From Candidatus Omnitrophica bacterium UBA6233 (GTDB taxonomy: Bacteria > Omnitrophota > Gorgyraeia > Gygaellales > Profunditerraquicolaceae): a stretch of 64,000 bases of DNA. The stretch is from positions 34-64,033 of the forward strand of contig DJWJ01000015.1 of the NCBI GenBank assembly GCA_002440965.1, given 5' to 3'. Numbering within the stretch: position 1 is the stretch's first letter; the number at the start of each line of letters is the position of its first letter. A program made the position numbers and the translations under genes. Shown here piece after piece: positions 11,649 through 18,669 of this stretch. A model generated the notes under the pieces. The model was given only the letters and a program-made list of their open reading frames with translations, was not told the DNA's origin and ran no database searches.

Positions 11649-11677
11649 TTGACAAACCACACATTTGTGTGGTATAT
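11649..11677 (+). promoter_or_regulatory. lexA promoter (TTGACA-17-GTATAT) with an embedded palindromic operator candidate ACCACACA-TT-TGTGTGGT
   Basis: -35 at 11649-11654 and -10 at 11672-11677; a perfect 8+2+8 palindrome fills the spacer. Confidence 0.5.
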
Positions 11678-11739
11678 CTATGGGTATGAAAAATAAGCCG
11701 TATTTGACACATTCGACAGCGCCTGAAAGGCACTGTTCA

Positions 11740-12354
11740 GTGTCAACCCTGAGTAAAGTCGAAGGGTTGACGCCGAAACAGGAAAAGGTGCTTAATTTTA
11801 TCCGTAAACGGATAGGGGAGAGGCTCCCCCCTACAATCAGAGAGATAGCAGGGGAGCTGGGGTTTAAATCTACCGGCACAGTAAGGGATTATCTCAAGGC
11901 TTTACAGCAGAAAGGATTGGTCAGGCGTATGAATAATAAATCCCGGGCTTTAGAATTAACTGAACGCGCAAGCTGCAATAAAATACCTATAATTGGGACC
12001 ATAATGGCTGGTAAGCCAAATTTGGCTTATGAAGAAATTCAAGGATATGTGGATGTGGATAATCTGTTTTTAGGCCGCTTGGGTTTCGATGATGTATTTG
12101 CCTTAAGGATTAAAGGCGATAGTATGATCGATGCCGGTATCCTTGATGGCGATGTGGCGATAATTAAGAAACAGCCTTATGCTGAAAATAACGACATAGT
12201 GGCTGCGCTTTTGAATGATAACGAAGTTACCTTAAAAAGGCTGGCGCGTAAGGGCAATAAATATCATTTGGAAGCCGCTAATCCGAATTACCCGCCAATT
12301 TTCGAAGAATTTAAAATAATCGGAAAGTTGATGACAGTAATAAGGAAATACTAA
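11740..12354 (+). CDS. lexA: LexA repressor (SOS regulator, S24 peptidase)
   Basis: wHTH 'LTPKQEKVLNFIRKRI...TIREIAGELGFKSTGTVRDYLKALQQKGLV' plus S24 'RIKGDSMIDAGILDGDVAII'. The ORF-track start at 11665 lies inside the promoter, so the GTG at 11740 (or TTG at 11767) is the likelier start. Confidence 0.85.
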   Translation: MSTLSKVEGLTPKQEKVLNFIRKRIGERLPPTIREIAGELGFKSTGTVRDYLKALQQKGLVRRMNNKSRALELTERASCNKIPIIGTIMAGKPNLAYEEIQGYVDVDNLFLGRLGFDDVFALRIKGDSMIDAGILDGDVAIIKKQPYAENNDIVAALLNDNEVTLKRLARKGNKYHLEAANPNYPPIFEEFKIIGKLMTVIRKY

Positions 12355-12357
12355 AGA

Positions 12358-12666
12358 ATGAACCAGAACAGCTTTAATCCTAAGGCGCGCTGGGATAGGT
12401 TTGAGCCGCAAGCCCAAGGTTTTAGTCCGGATGGTTTAGCCGAAAGGATTGAAGTTCTGGCTTATTTTAAAAACTCGCGCATTTACCCTAAAACTTTCCT
12501 TTGGAATGGCAAAGAATACAATATAGAAACTATGACCTACAATTGGCAGGAGAGTTTTGGCCAGGCATTGATTAATTATTTTTCAGTAATTAGTTCCGGA
12601 CAGCTCTATCAGATATCATTTAATAATTCCACCTTTCGTTGGCAGATCGATAAAATAATCCAATAA
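12358..12666 (+). CDS. Hypothetical protein (102 aa) in the SOS cassette between lexA and dinB
   Basis: 4 nt after the lexA stop; no recognisable family. Confidence 0.5.
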   Translation: MNQNSFNPKARWDRFEPQAQGFSPDGLAERIEVLAYFKNSRIYPKTFLWNGKEYNIETMTYNWQESFGQALINYFSVISSGQLYQISFNNSTFRWQIDKIIQ

Positions 12667-12674
12667 AATTAGAA

Positions 12675-12719
12675 AGGGACGGTTCTATGCTAAATGGCTA
12701 TACGAATAGAACCGTCCCT
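12675..12719. repeat. GC-rich palindromic element, short form (AGGGACGGTTCTAT-N17-ATAGAACCGTCCCT)
   Basis: 14-bp perfect inverted repeat; the same termini recur at 26242, 37276 and 47651. Confidence 0.8.
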
Positions 12720-12726
12720 AAATAGT

Positions 12727-13842
12727 ATGATTCTGCATATCGACATGGACGCGTTTTTTGCCTCAATTGAACAGGTTATAAATCCGCGTTTAAAAGGCAA
12801 ACCGTTAATTGTCGGTTCGCGCGTTGATAAAATGCGCACTGTGGTTTGCGCCGCAAGTTACGAAGCCAAGGCTTTGGGAATTCATTCCGGTATGCAATCA
12901 AGAGACGCTTTCAATATATGCCCAAATTTAGAATTTGTAGCGGCAGACCAAGCCAAATACATCTGGACTTCGGAGCAAATTTTCGAACTGCTTCAGGGTT
13001 TTGGATTTGCGCTGAATTATGCTTCAGTTGATGAATTTCAAATGGATATACGGGATTATACGGAGCCGTTTAAATTAGCCCGGGAAATCCAAGAGCAGAT
13101 CTATGCAAACTTTAACATTACCGCTTCGGTTGGTATAGCCAAAAACTGCCCTTTAGCCAAGCTGGCTTCAAAAATAAATAAGCCAAAGGGAGTGACTATT
13201 ATAAATGACGCTAACCTTAAAGAGGTCTTAAGCTTAGCGCCGCTTACCAAGGCCTGCGGGATGGCCGGCAAAACCGGACAAATCTTGATGGCTCAAGGTT
13301 TAAAAACCTGCTGGGACATTTATTTAAACTTACCGGGATTCTTTGGTGCGGATGGAAATCCCGGTAAGTTTGAGGAATCTAGTGAAGATGAAATAAGCCA
13401 GCGGCCTAAGTCAATAAGTCATTCATATACCTTGCCGAATGCTTTGGGAAACCCTATAGTTATTAGCGCCTGGATTAGGGTCTTATCTGAAATGGTTGGT
13501 GAGCGGCTGCGGCGTAAAAACTTGACCGCTAGAACAGTCCATCTTTGGTTAAATATGCCGGATAAGGGCGATTTTCTGGCCCAAAAAACCTTCACAATGC
13601 CTACCAATGATAGTTATGAGATATACCGGAAATCTCTGAAGTTGATGGCTGGAATGCCTAAAAAATGCCATAAAATCCGGGCTTTGGGAGTAACTGCCAG
13701 CCATTTAGAATACCAGGATTATCTGCCTTTGCTGGTTGAGGAAAGGCGCAGAGAGGCATTGATTAAAGCGGTAGATAGAATCAATGCCCGCTTTGGGGAT
13801 AGTTCGATTTTTCCTGCCCAGGTAATTTTAACCCGTAAATAA
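12727..13842 (+). CDS. dinB: DNA polymerase IV (Y-family translesion polymerase)
   Basis: 'MILHIDMDAFFASIEQ' canonical Y-family start. The ORF-track N-terminus (from 12694) reads through the upstream palindrome and is probably not translated. Confidence 0.85.
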   Translation: MILHIDMDAFFASIEQVINPRLKGKPLIVGSRVDKMRTVVCAASYEAKALGIHSGMQSRDAFNICPNLEFVAADQAKYIWTSEQIFELLQGFGFALNYASVDEFQMDIRDYTEPFKLAREIQEQIYANFNITASVGIAKNCPLAKLASKINKPKGVTIINDANLKEVLSLAPLTKACGMAGKTGQILMAQGLKTCWDIYLNLPGFFGADGNPGKFEESSEDEISQRPKSISHSYTLPNALGNPIVISAWIRVLSEMVGERLRRKNLTARTVHLWLNMPDKGDFLAQKTFTMPTNDSYEIYRKSLKLMAGMPKKCHKIRALGVTASHLEYQDYLPLLVEERRREALIKAVDRINARFGDSSIFPAQVILTRK

Positions 13843-14126: not shown

Positions 14127-14471
14127 TTATTCTGTTTTTGGTTCTGGTTGTTTTTGCGGGGATTCTTCGCGGGAACTGATTACATAATGTCCGCCTTGTA
14201 TCTTTATGGTATGCCCATTTACCAAGGCGTTGGCTAGGCTTTTATGCGCTCGCGTTAATATCCGGCTAAAGGTTTGTTGAGATATACGCATTAGTTTAGC
14301 CGCCTTTTTCTGGGGTAATCCCATATAGTCAGCCAACCTTATGGCCTCAAACTGGTCCATACTAAGATCCACTTCGTTTGGCCTTCCGGGCCTGCCTCGG
14401 GGGCTAAATTGGCTTATCTTAGGGTCAAGGCGCACTATCCTGTATTTTTTAGGTCTTCCTCGAGGCTGCAT
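14127..14471 (-). CDS. DUF134/UPF0251 family predicted DNA-binding protein
   Basis: 'RGRPKK...' N-terminus and HTH-like 'QKKAAKLMRISQQTFSRIL'. Confidence 0.65.
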   Translation of the reverse strand: MQPRGRPKKYRIVRLDPKISQFSPRGRPGRPNEVDLSMDQFEAIRLADYMGLPQKKAAKLMRISQQTFSRILTRAHKSLANALVNGHTIKIQGGHYVISSREESPQKQPEPKTE

Positions 14472-14580: not shown

Positions 14581-14766
14581 TCAGACTTCGTTTTCTTTGA
14601 CTAATTTACGGTAGTATTCGATACATTTATGGCAGGTTTTTTTGCTTTCGTGCCATTCTGGATGATCGCGCCTAATTAATTCCAGTAAATATTCTTCTGC
14701 TTTAATATGGGCTAGGCTGGCAAAATCGTCGATTTCGCGGTCGCAAATCTGGCATTTGTATTTCAT
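14581..14766 (-). CDS. Small zinc-ribbon protein (CxxC...CxxC)
   Basis: 'MKYKCQICDRE...KKTCHKCIEYY'; ATG at 14766. The ORF track uses an upstream TTG at 14775. Confidence 0.5.
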   Translation of the reverse strand: MKYKCQICDREIDDFASLAHIKAEEYLLELIRRDHPEWHESKKTCHKCIEYYRKLVKENEV

Positions 14767-14942
14767 TTTATGCAATCACTCCTCCAGCAGCAAATCAGCT
14801 GTTCACAGATGCGGGTAGTTCCAAAGCACGCGTTATTTCCTTCAGCGCGCTGGATTGTTTTTATTAGATCCTTCTTGGATAGTCTCCAGGTATCTTTGAT
14901 TCCCAATGATTTTGCCCTTTTTTCTACTTCAGAAAGCCTCAT
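14763..14942 (-). CDS. Small Rho_N/SAP-like domain protein (59 aa), absent from the ORF track
   Basis: GGAGGG RBS 7 nt upstream; 'MRLSEVEKRAKSLGIKDTWRLSKKDLIKTIQRAEGN' resembles the Rho termination factor N-terminal (SAP-like) motif; stop overlaps the next start (ATGA). Confidence 0.4.
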   Translation of the reverse strand: MRLSEVEKRAKSLGIKDTWRLSKKDLIKTIQRAEGNNACFGTTRICEQLICCWRSDCIK

Positions 14943-14943
14943 T

Positions 14944-15336
14944 TTAACTCCCTCCTGTTGTGTAGACTTTATAAACTAAATCGCCTTGCCTGACCCGGGA
15001 ATTAACCAGTAAACCGATTTCTTGTCCGGTTTTAGCTGAATTTACGGGAACGTGGTCAATTTGCATAGAAATTATGTTTTGCGTAAAATCCGTAGTGTGG
15101 CCTTTAATTTTAATTGTTTCTCCGGCAGATAAGCGAGCCTTTAGCTTGATTACCGCGGCTTGCACATGCGGGAAATAATGCGTTATAACCCCAATTACGT
15201 TCCCCTTTCTTTTTATTACACTTTTTTTCGGGGAGACAGTTTTCTTCTTGGCAGTTTTTTGGGTTAATTTCTTGGCAATTTTATTTTTTGCCGGTTTCTT
15301 CTTAACGATTTTCTTAGCCTTCTTCTTTGGCGCCAT
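14944..15336 (-). CDS. Lysine-rich histone-H1-like tail fused to an EF-Tu domain-2-like beta-barrel; candidate ParA partner/adaptor
   Basis: ATG at 15336 preceded by GAGGGAGGTG, 14 nt after the ParA stop; 'APKKKAKKIVKKKPAKNKIAKKLTQKTAKKK' then 'GVITHYFPHVQAAVIKLKARLSAGETIKIKG...GQEIGLLVNSRVRQGDLV'. Confidence 0.55.
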   Translation of the reverse strand: MAPKKKAKKIVKKKPAKNKIAKKLTQKTAKKKTVSPKKSVIKRKGNVIGVITHYFPHVQAAVIKLKARLSAGETIKIKGHTTDFTQNIISMQIDHVPVNSAKTGQEIGLLVNSRVRQGDLVYKVYTTGGS

Positions 15337-15349
15337 AAGCACCTCCCTC

Positions 15350-16486
15350 TTATTTATTAATATCGATTTCAATCAGGGAATCAACCGAACCATAGGGGTT
15401 GATTTCTCTTAGAGGATTGGAGGTATCTTCAATCCATTTTCCGTCAATAACAAAACGGTAGCGGTATTTACCGCTTGTAAGGTTTAACTTTTTACTCCAG
15501 GTTCCGTTATTACTAAGCATACGGTTTGAGTCTTCCAATTTCCAGTTATTGAATTCCCCGGCGATGTAGACATCTTTGGCATCGGGAGCAAAAACCGAGA
15601 ATATCACTTCAGTGAGTTTCGGAAGCTCCTTTTTAAGGATTTCATTCATTTTTCTCTCAAGGACGGCAATCGGCTTAGGCTCGGTTTTTCTAAAAGGCGC
15701 GCTTTCGGTTTTTCCTGTATTTTCAGGGCTAGTTTCCTGAGTGATGATTTCTCTTGAAAGGCTGTAATAGTCTTTTGCTCCACGGGAGTATTTGTCGAAA
15801 TTGAATATGTGGGTTCCCTGATTCTGGGCTTCTTTCAATTTTACATTTACATGGATAATATTTGACAATAACCTATCCCTAAAGTCAGATTTAATTTTTT
15901 CAAGCATTTTGAAAGAATGCGCCAGGCGGGAATCGAAATTTGTTACTAATATTTTGGTGTCCACGATGTGATTCAGGCGGTCGCGAACCAAGTTTACTAT
16001 GCTTAAGAGTTGATCCATGCCTTCCAGCGAAAACCTGCTTGCTTCTACCGGGATAATTACTTCATCAGCGGCCCGGATGGCGTTTATGGTCAGGATTCCC
16101 AGGTTTGGAGGGCAATCTATGAGGATATAGTCGTAATTTACCTTAAAATTGTTTAAAGTATCCCAAAGGCGGGATTCTCTTCCGATTTCCCCGGCTAGCT
16201 CCTGCTCAAGCGTGCTTAAGATAATGCTGGATGGCGCTATGTCGAAATCCGGGCTTACATTCTGGATGATATCTTCAAGTTTGGCCTTCTGATGGGTAAT
16301 TTTCGACAACACATTGTAGATACTGAAATAAGACTTGATGTTTAATCCTAGTGTAGCGTGCGCCTGGGGGTCAATATCCACCAGTAACACTTTTCTTCCG
16401 TTAGCAGCTAAAGAGGCAGCCAAATTAACCGAGGTAGTTGTTTTTCCGCATCCGCCTTTTTGATTGGTTATAGCGATTATACGCAT
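15350..16486 (-). CDS. ParA/MinD-family ATPase fused to a C-terminal CBM48 / AMPK-beta glycogen-binding domain
   Basis: Deviant Walker A 'NQKGGCGKTTT'; C-terminal 'VIFSVFAPDAKDVYIAGEFNNWK...GKYRYRFVIDGKWIEDTSNP' closely matches the AMPK1_CBM/CBM48 pattern (xVxFxWx...VyvaGsFNNW...geyeYKFiVDGeWvhDp). Confidence 0.85.
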   Translation of the reverse strand: MRIIAITNQKGGCGKTTTSVNLAASLAANGRKVLLVDIDPQAHATLGLNIKSYFSIYNVLSKITHQKAKLEDIIQNVSPDFDIAPSSIILSTLEQELAGEIGRESRLWDTLNNFKVNYDYILIDCPPNLGILTINAIRAADEVIIPVEASRFSLEGMDQLLSIVNLVRDRLNHIVDTKILVTNFDSRLAHSFKMLEKIKSDFRDRLLSNIIHVNVKLKEAQNQGTHIFNFDKYSRGAKDYYSLSREIITQETSPENTGKTESAPFRKTEPKPIAVLERKMNEILKKELPKLTEVIFSVFAPDAKDVYIAGEFNNWKLEDSNRMLSNNGTWSKKLNLTSGKYRYRFVIDGKWIEDTSNPLREINPYGSVDSLIEIDINK

Positions 16487-16504: not shown

Positions 16505-17113
16505 TCAGGCTTTAAGAAGCCTAACGTTATCGATAAAAACTATGCCTTTCTTTCCGGAAGTATTCCATTCCTCCACGCAAAAAGAAAGGCTGGTGGTTTC
16601 CGACCAGTCGTTTAAATTCTTGAAATCGGTCAAGTTTATTTTAAAATCCTTCCAGTTGGAAGGAATATTCCTTAAATATATTTCTGATCTCTCCTTGAAA
16701 GCGTTTACGAATTCAATCCGTAAGGCTATTCTTTCCCTGGGTTCCATATTCCTGATTGAAAAAGCCAGCATTTTAAAACGCGCCAAGTTTAAGTGATTCA
16801 AATTAAGGCTGTAGACTTCTTTTTTGGCGGGGTCGAAATTGAAATTTATCTTCGCGGGATCGTTTTGAAGGATCAAGGCGGTTTCAGAATGCAAATTATG
16901 CCTTTTAGATACGGAAGAAAATATAGTTGTAGACAAGCCAACCATCAGAAATATGCTTACAATAAAAAGATTCTTGAAAAGTTTTGGATAAGCTTTATTT
17001 CTCTTTTTCTTCTTTGAAGAAGCATCAAGGTAGATTTTTGCTAGGTGTTCGTAGATATCTTTTTTATCCATTTTAACTTGAACATTTATAACATAAAAGT
17101 CCTTAGATGTCAA
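16505..17113 (-). CDS. Membrane-anchored protein with C-terminal jelly-roll CBM-like domain
   Basis: KKKK cytoplasmic stretch, one TM helix, C-terminal '...GKKGIVFIDNVRLL' typical ending of carbohydrate-binding jelly-roll modules; 4-nt overlap with GH57. Confidence 0.5.
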   Translation of the reverse strand: MTSKDFYVINVQVKMDKKDIYEHLAKIYLDASSKKKKRNKAYPKLFKNLFIVSIFLMVGLSTTIFSSVSKRHNLHSETALILQNDPAKINFNFDPAKKEVYSLNLNHLNLARFKMLAFSIRNMEPRERIALRIEFVNAFKERSEIYLRNIPSNWKDFKINLTDFKNLNDWSETTSLSFCVEEWNTSGKKGIVFIDNVRLLKA

Positions 17114-18669
17114 GCACTTAGAGGGTTTGACAAGTAATCGGGAATGGGTTTTTTGATTATTGAGTAAAAGTTACATAAATGCAGGCGGAATAACCTGTCG
17201 AAGGATCCTTCAGGGTCTTCTCCATACCACCAGAACCAGTCGCTGCCTTCCAAAACATAAATCTGTTTTAAGGCAAGCTGTAGTTCTTGGTTCGATAATC
17301 TGGAGCCGGCTTCATCTAATTCTTTTCGCGCGGCAAGCAGCCACTCCCAAGCCTTAACTTTATAGTAATTCCCCATCCATTTATTGAAATTGCCGTAAAT
17401 CCATGACCCGGCGCTTAGGTGTTTGATTTTGGATTTAGCCGGATGATTTTCTAAATATTCAGATATTGTTGTAACCTTGATGGTGTTAGAATCGCAAAGG
17501 CGCTGATAAAGCAACTCCAGAAAATCATGGCCGTCATTGGTATAATATTCCCAGGCGTTTTCTCCATCCATTGCTATCGTAACCAGAACATCTTCATTTT
17601 TGAACGCCTTGTTTATATTGTCCAGATGTTGCATAAAATCCGCTACCGCGTTCTCCGCCTTCCATGAATGATAAACAAATCCGATTAGGTCTGAAAGGTT
17701 GCGGTCGCGAAATATGATTCTTAACTCCCCCTCCCTCCTTTTTAATAAGTGAGGTTGGTAGAGCAGTTTAGTGTCCCTCTTTTTTGATTTAAAAGATTTA
17801 AAAAGTAAAGCCTCATCCGTGACTATCCATTTTATTCCGGAGCCGATTATAAATGGCAGGATACTTTCGCTTACCGATTCTTCTGACGGCCACATTCCCC
17901 GGGGCGCCATCCCGAATCTTTCCTGATAAAAATTTACGGCCGTATCGATTTGAATCTTGGCGTCTTGCGGATAGCGGAATTCCGATTTTGGCAAAAGGCT
18001 TTGGAGGTTTGCTTCTTTGGCGCTATTTGAACTGCATAAAAGCGGCAATATTGGATGATAATATGGCGTTACGCTTAGTTCTATTTGGCCGGCTGCGCAA
18101 GACCGTTTATAATCAGGGATTATTTCTCTTAGAATGGTTATTTGTTTGTCTAGAACAAGGCGTTTATCCTCTTCAGTAAAAAACCTGCCTTTAGATATAA
18201 TTGTTCTTAACTCCGGGAATTTTGAGCGGAAAGAAGGGTCAATCCAGGCTAAATTAAACCAAGTCTGAAGGTCCAGATAGTCCTGGATATCGAACTCTTC
18301 TCTTTTTTGTTTCTTAAAGTATAATTCATAATAGCGGGGAAAATTAGAGATAACTTTGTCTTTGTTGATGGAAAAGAAATTATTTAAAATAAAATGCTTT
18401 TCGCTTGGGGAGAGTTTTTTTGCTTCTTTATAAGAAAGTTCAAGAAAAGTATCCCTTACGGAATCATTTGTATAATTTTCTATCTGTTCGAATAACGATG
18501 GGACGATATTGAAAGTTTGATGAATCTTGGGGAATTTCTCTAAAATTTGCACCATATCCAGGTAATCTTTAACCCCGTGAAGCCTTACCCAAGGAAGATT
18601 AGCTTCATTGGTAAGCAGATCTTTGTAATACGGTTGGTGCATATGGAAGATGAAGGCCAAGTTTAGCAT
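17110..18669 (-). CDS. Glycoside hydrolase family 57 alpha-glucan-active enzyme (branching-enzyme-like size class)
   Basis: 'FIFHMHQPYY...' GH57 N-terminal signature; 519 aa. Confidence 0.85.
   Translation of the reverse strand: MLNLAFIFHMHQPYYKDLLTNEANLPWVRLHGVKDYLDMVQILEKFPKIHQTFNIVPSLFEQIENYTNDSVRDTFLELSYKEAKKLSPSEKHFILNNFFSINKDKVISNFPRYYELYFKKQKREEFDIQDYLDLQTWFNLAWIDPSFRSKFPELRTIISKGRFFTEEDKRLVLDKQITILREIIPDYKRSCAAGQIELSVTPYYHPILPLLCSSNSAKEANLQSLLPKSEFRYPQDAKIQIDTAVNFYQERFGMAPRGMWPSEESVSESILPFIIGSGIKWIVTDEALLFKSFKSKKRDTKLLYQPHLLKRREGELRIIFRDRNLSDLIGFVYHSWKAENAVADFMQHLDNINKAFKNEDVLVTIAMDGENAWEYYTNDGHDFLELLYQRLCDSNTIKVTTISEYLENHPAKSKIKHLSAGSWIYGNFNKWMGNYYKVKAWEWLLAARKELDEAGSRLSNQELQLALKQIYVLEGSDWFWWYGEDPEGSFDRLFRLHLCNFYSIIKKPIPDYLSNPLSA

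Follow-up and report, generated by a model that had tools for sequence, protein, structure and literature searches.

Introduction

The protein analysed here, which we call K-barrel, consists of a lysine-rich N-terminal tail and a small beta-barrel, and both parts have counterparts among described proteins. For the barrel, the best match in structure as well as in Pfam is the C-terminal domain of peptidase U32 (PF16325; 4he6 and 4he5, Geobacillus thermoleovorans), with 80–82 aligned columns. The identity is 17–19% and the match lies below the Pfam gathering score; moreover, the domain ends an enzyme in U32, whereas in K-barrel it stands alone behind a polylysine tail. To our knowledge, no function has been established for the U32 C-terminal domain. 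Domain 2 of EF-Tu and EF-1alpha and the barrels of IF2 and eIF5B have the same fold, and the homology to the profile of the K-barrel family includes the two stretches xGDxIxxxG and SxQxxHxxxxxAxxGxxIGxxV. The EF-Tu domain 2 and IF2 C2 barrels are modules that recognise the ribosome or the ends of aminoacyl-tRNAs. Unlike the elongation factors, K-barrel has neither a GTPase domain nor a domain 3, and its motifs THYFP and KGHTTDF are absent from them.

A second comparison is suggested by the position of the gene next to that of a ParA-type ATPase. McdB, as described by MacCready et al., is said to have a disordered N-terminus followed by a coiled-coil/oligomerisation region and a conserved C-terminal tryptophan; K-barrel has no coiled coil and no tryptophan, and its C-terminus reads ...VYKVYTTGGS. 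A match to the ParB/Srx N-terminal domain or to the helix-turn-helix of ParB was sought in Pfam and NCBIfam at E ≤ 0.1, and none was found. A positively charged, disordered N-terminus has been described as a shared feature of the partner proteins of ParA/MinD ATPases (PMC10241942). With ParB, McdB, MinE and PomX, K-barrel has in common such an N-terminus, which is a non-specific feature, and a gene that is here adjacent to that of a ParA. It differs from them in that it is not co-inherited with the ATPase, and in that its tail is a run of low complexity, 45 residues long, instead of a brief conserved peptide. Finally, the tail is similar to those of Hc1, AlgP, PhaF and PhaM in being rich in lysine, alanine and proline and free of acidic residues over ~45–55 residues. 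This likeness is compositional only, and the tail of K-barrel is N-terminal and is borne on a translation-factor-type barrel.

The gene lies in a stretch of Omnitrophota DNA of 64,000 nucleotides, referred to below as the window. A first-pass annotation had read K-barrel as a candidate partner of the preceding ParA. Here, we set the structure, the family and the gene contexts of K-barrel against that proposal.

The K-barrel gene and its start site

The gene and its parts, all on the minus strand, are as follows.

14944–15336 (−): gene for K-barrel, a 130-residue lysine-tailed barrel protein (sequence, ORF list, 1306 close homologues, alignment)
15202–15336 (−): disordered polylysine tail, codons 1–45 (composition against the window background; AlphaFold pLDDT)
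14965–15201 (−): six-stranded beta-barrel of the peptidase-U32 C-terminal/EF-Tu domain 2 type, codons 46–124 (AlphaFold, Foldseek, profile, invariant columns)
15340–15349 (−): Shine-Dalgarno-like GAGGGAGGTG, its last base 3 nt before the K-barrel ATG (sequence)

Reading the sequence places the start at the ATG at 15336–15334 and the stop at the TAA at 14946–14944. In the ORF track the gene begins instead at a TTG at 15372, and so overlaps the C-terminus of ParA. Aligned relatives start M-A/P-L/P-K-K-K, leaving the longer TTG start without homologue support, and a GGAGG-type site lies just 5′ of the start in nearly all of the 80 related loci. The homologue N-termini and these conserved sites thus agree with the earlier choice of the ATG over the ORF-track start. 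The ParA stop (TAA, 15352–15350) is followed by a gap to the K-barrel ATG which is short, as had been claimed, and is 13 nt by our count, not 14 nt. The stop of K-barrel is separated by 1 nt from the next downstream ATG, and no terminator-like site was found in the window either between ParA and K-barrel or between K-barrel and the next small gene. Judged from this spacing, K-barrel is probably co-transcribed in the window with ParA and with the small genes 3′ of it. The 13-nt and 1-nt gaps, together with the lack of a terminator-like site, leave room for a functional link between K-barrel and ParA in the window's clade. K-barrel is a real, well-conserved small gene.

The neighbouring features are as follows.

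17110–18669 (−): GH57 family alpha-glucan enzyme (Pfam Glyco_hydro_57, E = 2.5e-62)
16505–17071 (−): p187, a 188-residue protein (alignment, AlphaFold, Foldseek, gap counts)
15350–16486 (−): ParA-CBM48, a ParA-type ATPase (KGGCGKT deviant Walker A) with a C-terminal CBM48/AMPK glycogen-binding module (Pfam)
14763–14942 (−): 59-residue protein, Rho_N/SAP-like at the N-terminus and rich in Cys at the C-terminus (sub-threshold Pfam match to Rho_N, E = 8e-4)
14581–14775 (−): 64-residue protein with two CxxC pairs, zinc-ribbon-like (ORF list; weak FmdB zinc-ribbon match)
14127–14471 (−): DUF134 helix-turn-helix protein (Pfam DUF134, E = 9e-27)
11665–13842 (+): LexA, a 102-residue protein (p102) and DinB, a cassette encoded on the other strand relative to the operon, divergent from DUF134

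The Pfam matches of ParA-CBM48 are to AAA_31 (E = 1.6e-57), AMPK1_CBM (E = 5e-13) and CBM_48 (E = 7e-8). The genes for the 59- and 64-residue proteins overlap by 13 nt; downstream of K-barrel, the former occurs in 48 and the latter in 46 of the 80 loci, and DUF134 in 59. On the other strand, the DinB of the window is Pol IV-like by sequence inspection, and p102, which lies between LexA and DinB, is conserved and has no Pfam match; p102 is present in 30 of the 80 loci and LexA in 29.

A disordered polylysine tail

Residues 1–45 comprise 20 lysines (44%), one arginine and no aspartate or glutamate, which gives a net charge of +21 and a pI of 11.7. Across the 49 long ORFs of the window lysine makes up 8.8% of residues, and every other 45-residue stretch in those ORFs has at most 12 lysines. 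The lysine enrichment of the tail is hence genuine and much greater than chance would produce. In the AlphaFold2 model, built with a 20-sequence alignment, the tail has a pLDDT of 45–56 and is predicted to be disordered. The ~50-residue lysine-repeat N-terminus recognised in the first-pass annotation is thus confirmed as disordered polylysine. In 74 relatives the tail is 43–111 residues long with 40–56% K + R, and among aligned relatives it is the composition that is kept and not the sequence. Positions 4–6, K-K-K, are nearly invariant, the N-terminus of the clade being M-A/P-L-K-K-K.

The resemblance to histone H1, Hc1 and AlgP that had been claimed for the tail holds for its composition and does not extend to family membership, as neither Pfam nor NCBIfam gives a match to an Hc1 or H1 domain. 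It nevertheless raises the idea that K-barrel is a nucleoid-associated protein of the H1/Hc1 kind, whose tail would compact or coat DNA and whose barrel would self-associate or recruit. Lysine at 44% in the company of A, P, V and T is indeed reminiscent of H1-type tails, the neighbours of the gene include small putative DNA-binding proteins and SOS genes, and PhaM and PhaF attach storage granules to the nucleoid through lysine-rich tails. A protein of this kind could incidentally provide ParA-CBM48 with a DNA matrix or tether. Besides the missing family match, what speaks against the idea is that the homologues of the barrel are RNA- and ribosome-binding modules and that tail-less, bare barrels are common, which argues that the core function is independent of the tail. 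We regard a nucleoid protein as rather doubtful; it is the case in which the ligand is DNA, and its probability is counted inside that of the polyanion-binding reading given in the Discussion.

A translation-factor-type barrel

After the tail the model is all-beta and has no helices. Residues 46–124 form six strands, with a pLDDT of ~70–91 per 10-residue block (AlphaFold2). In a Foldseek search of the PDB, the U32 structures 4he6 and 4he5 rank highest, their C-terminal domain matching with E = 4e-4 and a target TM-score of 0.79–0.83; next come EF-Tu domain 2, IF2 and the N-terminal (crown) barrel of F1-ATPase. The best 50 matches are made up of U32 C-terminal domains, EF-Tu/IF2/eIF5B barrels and F1-ATPase crown barrels. 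A KOW- or S1-type fold, which would have counted against the first-pass proposal, is not found among these 50. A profile of distant relatives run against PDB sequences matches domain 2 of EF-1alpha/EF-Tu with E between 1e-4 and 5e-4, and the family profile identified no solved structure of a family member in the same set.

The Pfam matches of the window protein are sub-threshold, namely Peptidase_U32_C (E = 2e-3, residues 46–120) and GTP_EFTU_D4. For PF16325 the score of the window protein is 18.5 bits, where the cut-off is 28.2, and PF03144 is unreported for it; relatives carry precomputed PF03144/PF16325 matches. In an alignment of 19 relatives the barrel is 62–78% identical overall to the window protein and has 38 invariant columns, and its conserved motifs are THYFP, KGHTTDF, SMQID (S-x-Q-I), EIG and SRVRxxD. 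His53, His80, Thr81-Thr82-Asp83, Asp94, Glu106 and Arg114/Arg116 are among its invariant residues. The translation-factor domain 2-like C-terminus proposed earlier is borne out by AlphaFold, Foldseek and the family profile alike. On the modelled structure, this part of K-barrel is a true translation-factor domain 2-type barrel, closest to the peptidase-U32 C-terminal domain.

A large family of small proteins

A word-indexed search gave 1306 close relatives of K-barrel. The 120 close relatives listed are 103–156 residues long, and all of them that are named come from Omnitrophota. When the barrel alone served as query, an exhaustive search gave 2156 clusters (50% identity) at E ≤ 1e-3, and for a profile of distant members the number of matching proteins exceeds 7800. 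Among the best 150 of the 2156 clusters most have K/R-rich tails of 25–140 residues; other architectures seen in the barrel search are bare barrels of 80–90 residues and pairs of barrels behind another domain. Bare 80–90-residue barrels matched by the distant-member profile are named from Bathy-, Nano-, Pace- and Asgard archaea, Nitrospirae and Actinobacteria. The source labels of the relatives read "translation elongation factor-like protein" or "putative protease". A full-text literature search with the former as family name gave nothing relevant. K-barrel is thus one more member of a family that is already annotated and has no assigned function.

Some bare barrels in the databases may be truncated gene calls that lack the lysine tail. 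One and the same gene (P0406 and P0407) is given as 145 residues in metagenome sources and as 80 residues, the barrel only, in the NCBI/UniRef record, and this conflict in length makes it possible that other bare barrels have also lost their tails in gene calling.

Nine proteins (P0124, P0125, P0134, P0144, P0151, P0153, P0190, P0212 and P0254) have two tandem barrels behind another N-terminal domain. One of these, P0125, has a TIR domain, recognised by its match to defence models of PADLOC (E = 2e-11), which suggests that the barrel may also serve as a sensor/adaptor module in TIR proteins. For K-barrel itself and its small neighbours PADLOC and PHROGs gave no match, and a defence or phage role for K-barrel was dropped.

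Another architecture unlike that of the window protein is seen in seven loci (L095, L116, L117, L119, L123, L130 and L134), where a conserved amphipathic N-terminal segment, MKFLKKLGKALFGS, precedes the lysine tail and a second conserved segment, RMVKVALAAxPTAEV, lies between tail and barrel. The L116 protein is named as Omnitrophota.

Many relatives begin in this way, with an amphipathic segment and then a K-rich region (MKFLKKLGKALFGS, MLFKKIIRLFKRAF and MIFGLF are examples), as might be expected if K-barrel were a peripheral membrane protein, with its polybasic tail on acidic phospholipids and its barrel held at the inner membrane. The window protein and its clade have no such segment, as they start MA(L/P)KKK, and no membrane-related neighbour recurs, so that we consider a membrane role very improbable.

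Gene order in the window's clade

In the collection of one genome per species, relatives of K-barrel are found in 275 matching stretches, of which 80 were kept as related loci. Of the 78 loci with enough upstream sequence, 77 have K-barrel 3′ of ParA-CBM48, and the same holds for another 12 loci from metagenomes in which the upstream sequence reaches 3 kb or beyond. This constancy, the shared strand and the 13-nt gap free of terminator-like sites are grounds for casting K-barrel in the role of a partner or adaptor to ParA-CBM48. In that role its basic peptide would stimulate the ATPase, and its barrel or tail would link cargo or nucleoid in the manner of McdB or ParB. The disordered, positive N-terminus with its near-invariant K-K-K at 4–6 also agrees with the published description of such partners (PMC10241942).

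The same order extends, however, well beyond these two genes. It runs sigma-70, phosphoribosyltransferase, PHP, p157, porin, GH57, p187, ParA-CBM48, K-barrel, and continues with the SAP/Cys protein, the Zn-ribbon protein and DUF134, and then DinB, p102 and LexA on the other strand. Each of these genes, including functionally unrelated ones, recurs wherever the contigs reach. Of the 80 loci, 57 have GH57, 50 have porin and 35 have DinB, and no more than 4 extend as far as sigma-70; contig ends account for many of the absences in these counts. Since unrelated neighbours keep their order in this way, the adjacency of ParA and K-barrel carries little information on function. Nor is it strict. In 28 of the 77 loci the two genes are directly adjacent, and in the other 49 one or two unrelated genes lie between them: a predicted membrane protein of ~105 residues (105–112) with no Pfam match, a nitroreductase of ~165 residues, or both. 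In a single locus (L065) K-barrel directly follows GH57, and p187 and ParA-CBM48 are both absent. We therefore rejected conserved synteny as the sign of a partner operon, given the order kept by unrelated neighbours and the genes inserted in the gap. The adjacency is probably an order inherited within one Omnitrophota clade, mostly a matter of slow genome rearrangement.

Two observations on these loci may be added. The inserted genes are on the same strand as ParA and K-barrel and occur in loci within L009–L078, the window having neither of them; the membrane protein carries the motif …EGKFFAVISYxSFLCI…YHAKQGLVLF…. In addition, the full Omnitrophota-type order is found in assemblies labelled "uncultured Planctomycetales" or "Margulisiibacteriota" (L015, L027, L028, L030, L034 and others), where probably either the labels are loose or the bins are wrong.

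Contexts without ParA

Metagenomes were scanned with a profile of the more distant tailed members of the family, and a ParA-type gene was sought near them by tblastn (E ≤ 1e-5). No ParA-type gene was found within 3–5 kb of the lysine-tailed relative in at least 25 metagenome loci whose upstream sequence spans 3 kb or more, and for two of these loci the Pfam tables show no ParA within 10 kb on either side. Most of the ParA-less loci adjoin RmuC. The usual arrangement there is a co-directional set of genes in the order RNase E/G, RmuC, K-barrel, Zn-ribbon, CCA-adding enzyme, in which the Zn-ribbon protein has 105 residues and the last gene encodes a CCA-adding/poly(A) polymerase. In a smaller set K-barrel follows an HhH-GPD glycosylase. 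By exact-sequence look-up, three of the proteins from these ParA-less loci have a named source, in each case Omnitrophota. Two distant tailed relatives lie on short contigs, P0180 between fumarase and a response regulator and P0249 alone on 1 kb. The bare barrels of other phyla are found in varied, unrelated contexts; the sole ParA-family gene near them is a convergent one in L082–L084, and none is co-oriented.

In the three recurrent contexts the neighbours are mostly nucleic-acid proteins. In the window's clade they are SAP/Rho_N-like, Zn-ribbon, DUF134 and DinB/LexA proteins; the RmuC array has RNase E/G, RmuC itself and the CCA-adding enzyme, and the third context has the HhH-GPD glycosylase.

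Co-occurrence with ParA-CBM48, which had been put forward as a check on the partner proposal, thus holds within the window's clade and fails across the family. The K-barrel family as a whole appears to be independent of ParA and the co-occurrence to be specific to one clade. The family is also far wider than ParA-CBM48, and the ATPase already has a cargo-binding module of its own. Taken with the inserted genes and the locus that retains K-barrel without ParA, these data count against K-barrel as a McdB/ParB-like adaptor, a role which we now judge unlikely. Of the fit in position and charge on which the proposal was based, the basic, disordered N-terminus and the adjacency in the window stand; the former is non-specific, and the latter does not reflect co-inheritance.

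p187 and a putative alpha-glucan ParA module

A better candidate for the partner of ParA-CBM48 is p187. Its true start is the ATG at 17071 (MDKKDIY...), the TTG start at 17113 in the ORF track being over-extended. In the alignment its N-terminus is an almost invariant stretch of 19 residues, MDKKDIYEHLAKIYLDASS, which AlphaFold models with a helix over residues 3–18. There follow a KKKK cluster, a membrane helix (residues 29–55) and a beta-sandwich with a pLDDT above 90, for which the best Foldseek matches are CBM11 and CBM30 (E = 3e-7). A search with p187 gave 967 matches and no Pfam family, and all the named matches are from Omnitrophota. In all 65 loci measured the gene is immediately 5′ of ParA-CBM48, and no other gene intervenes (median gap 20 nt, maximum 228 nt), and in L065 the two have been lost together.

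With its conserved, charged N-terminal peptide, its adjacency to the ATPase and this joint loss, p187 fits the description of ParA/MinD partners (PMC10241942) better than a lysine run does. From context and modelled structure we infer that it is likely to be the better candidate. That its N-terminal peptide is the more partner-like, and that it is never separated from ParA, weighs further against K-barrel in this role.

Together, GH57, p187 with its CBM-like domain and ParA-CBM48 look as though they formed a ParA system with an alpha-glucan (glycogen) as its cargo. In a full-text search of the literature on ParA with glycogen, CBM48 or Omnitrophota, no such system was described. K-barrel might be imagined as the third part, besides p187 and ParA-CBM48, of a system that positions glycogen granules, in which CBM48 would hold the granule and the lysine tail would tether the complex to the nucleoid or trigger the ATPase, the genes being used together even in Omnitrophota lineages where they lie apart. 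We think this quite unlikely.

Discussion

The reading that we favour, with a probability of roughly 0.45, is that K-barrel is a housekeeping polyanion-binding protein associated with RNA or DNA. It is built on a stand-alone barrel of the EF-Tu domain 2/U32 C-terminal type and belongs to a large family of small proteins, in which the barrel carries a polybasic, disordered N-terminal tail of 25–140 residues in Omnitrophota and in many other metagenomic lineages. The tail would bind a polyanion without specificity, RNA or DNA being the likeliest ligand, and the conserved barrel would recognise one specific, conserved partner. The position of the gene after ParA-CBM48 would then be an inherited order in one Omnitrophota clade and not the sign of a dedicated adaptor.

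It is the combination of a translation-factor fold, a tail of the polyanion-binding type and mostly nucleic-acid neighbours that favours an RNA- or DNA-associated role. We count in its support the fold and homology to translation-factor barrels, the huge family that is not tied to ParA, and the functions of the neighbouring genes. Against it, a polybasic tail would bind polyphosphate or acidic membranes equally well, several contexts of bare barrels are unrelated to nucleic acids, and in the window K-barrel is tightly packed with ParA-CBM48.

If K-barrel were after all the partner of this ParA, it would represent a new class of adaptor within an undescribed ParA system that positions a carbohydrate store. 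On present evidence, its value is that it points to a very large and unstudied family of small proteins, with thousands of clusters in bacteria and archaea. Attention shifts to p187 as the likelier partner of ParA-CBM48, and the module formed by these two, with or without GH57, is a more interesting object in this neighbourhood than K-barrel itself.
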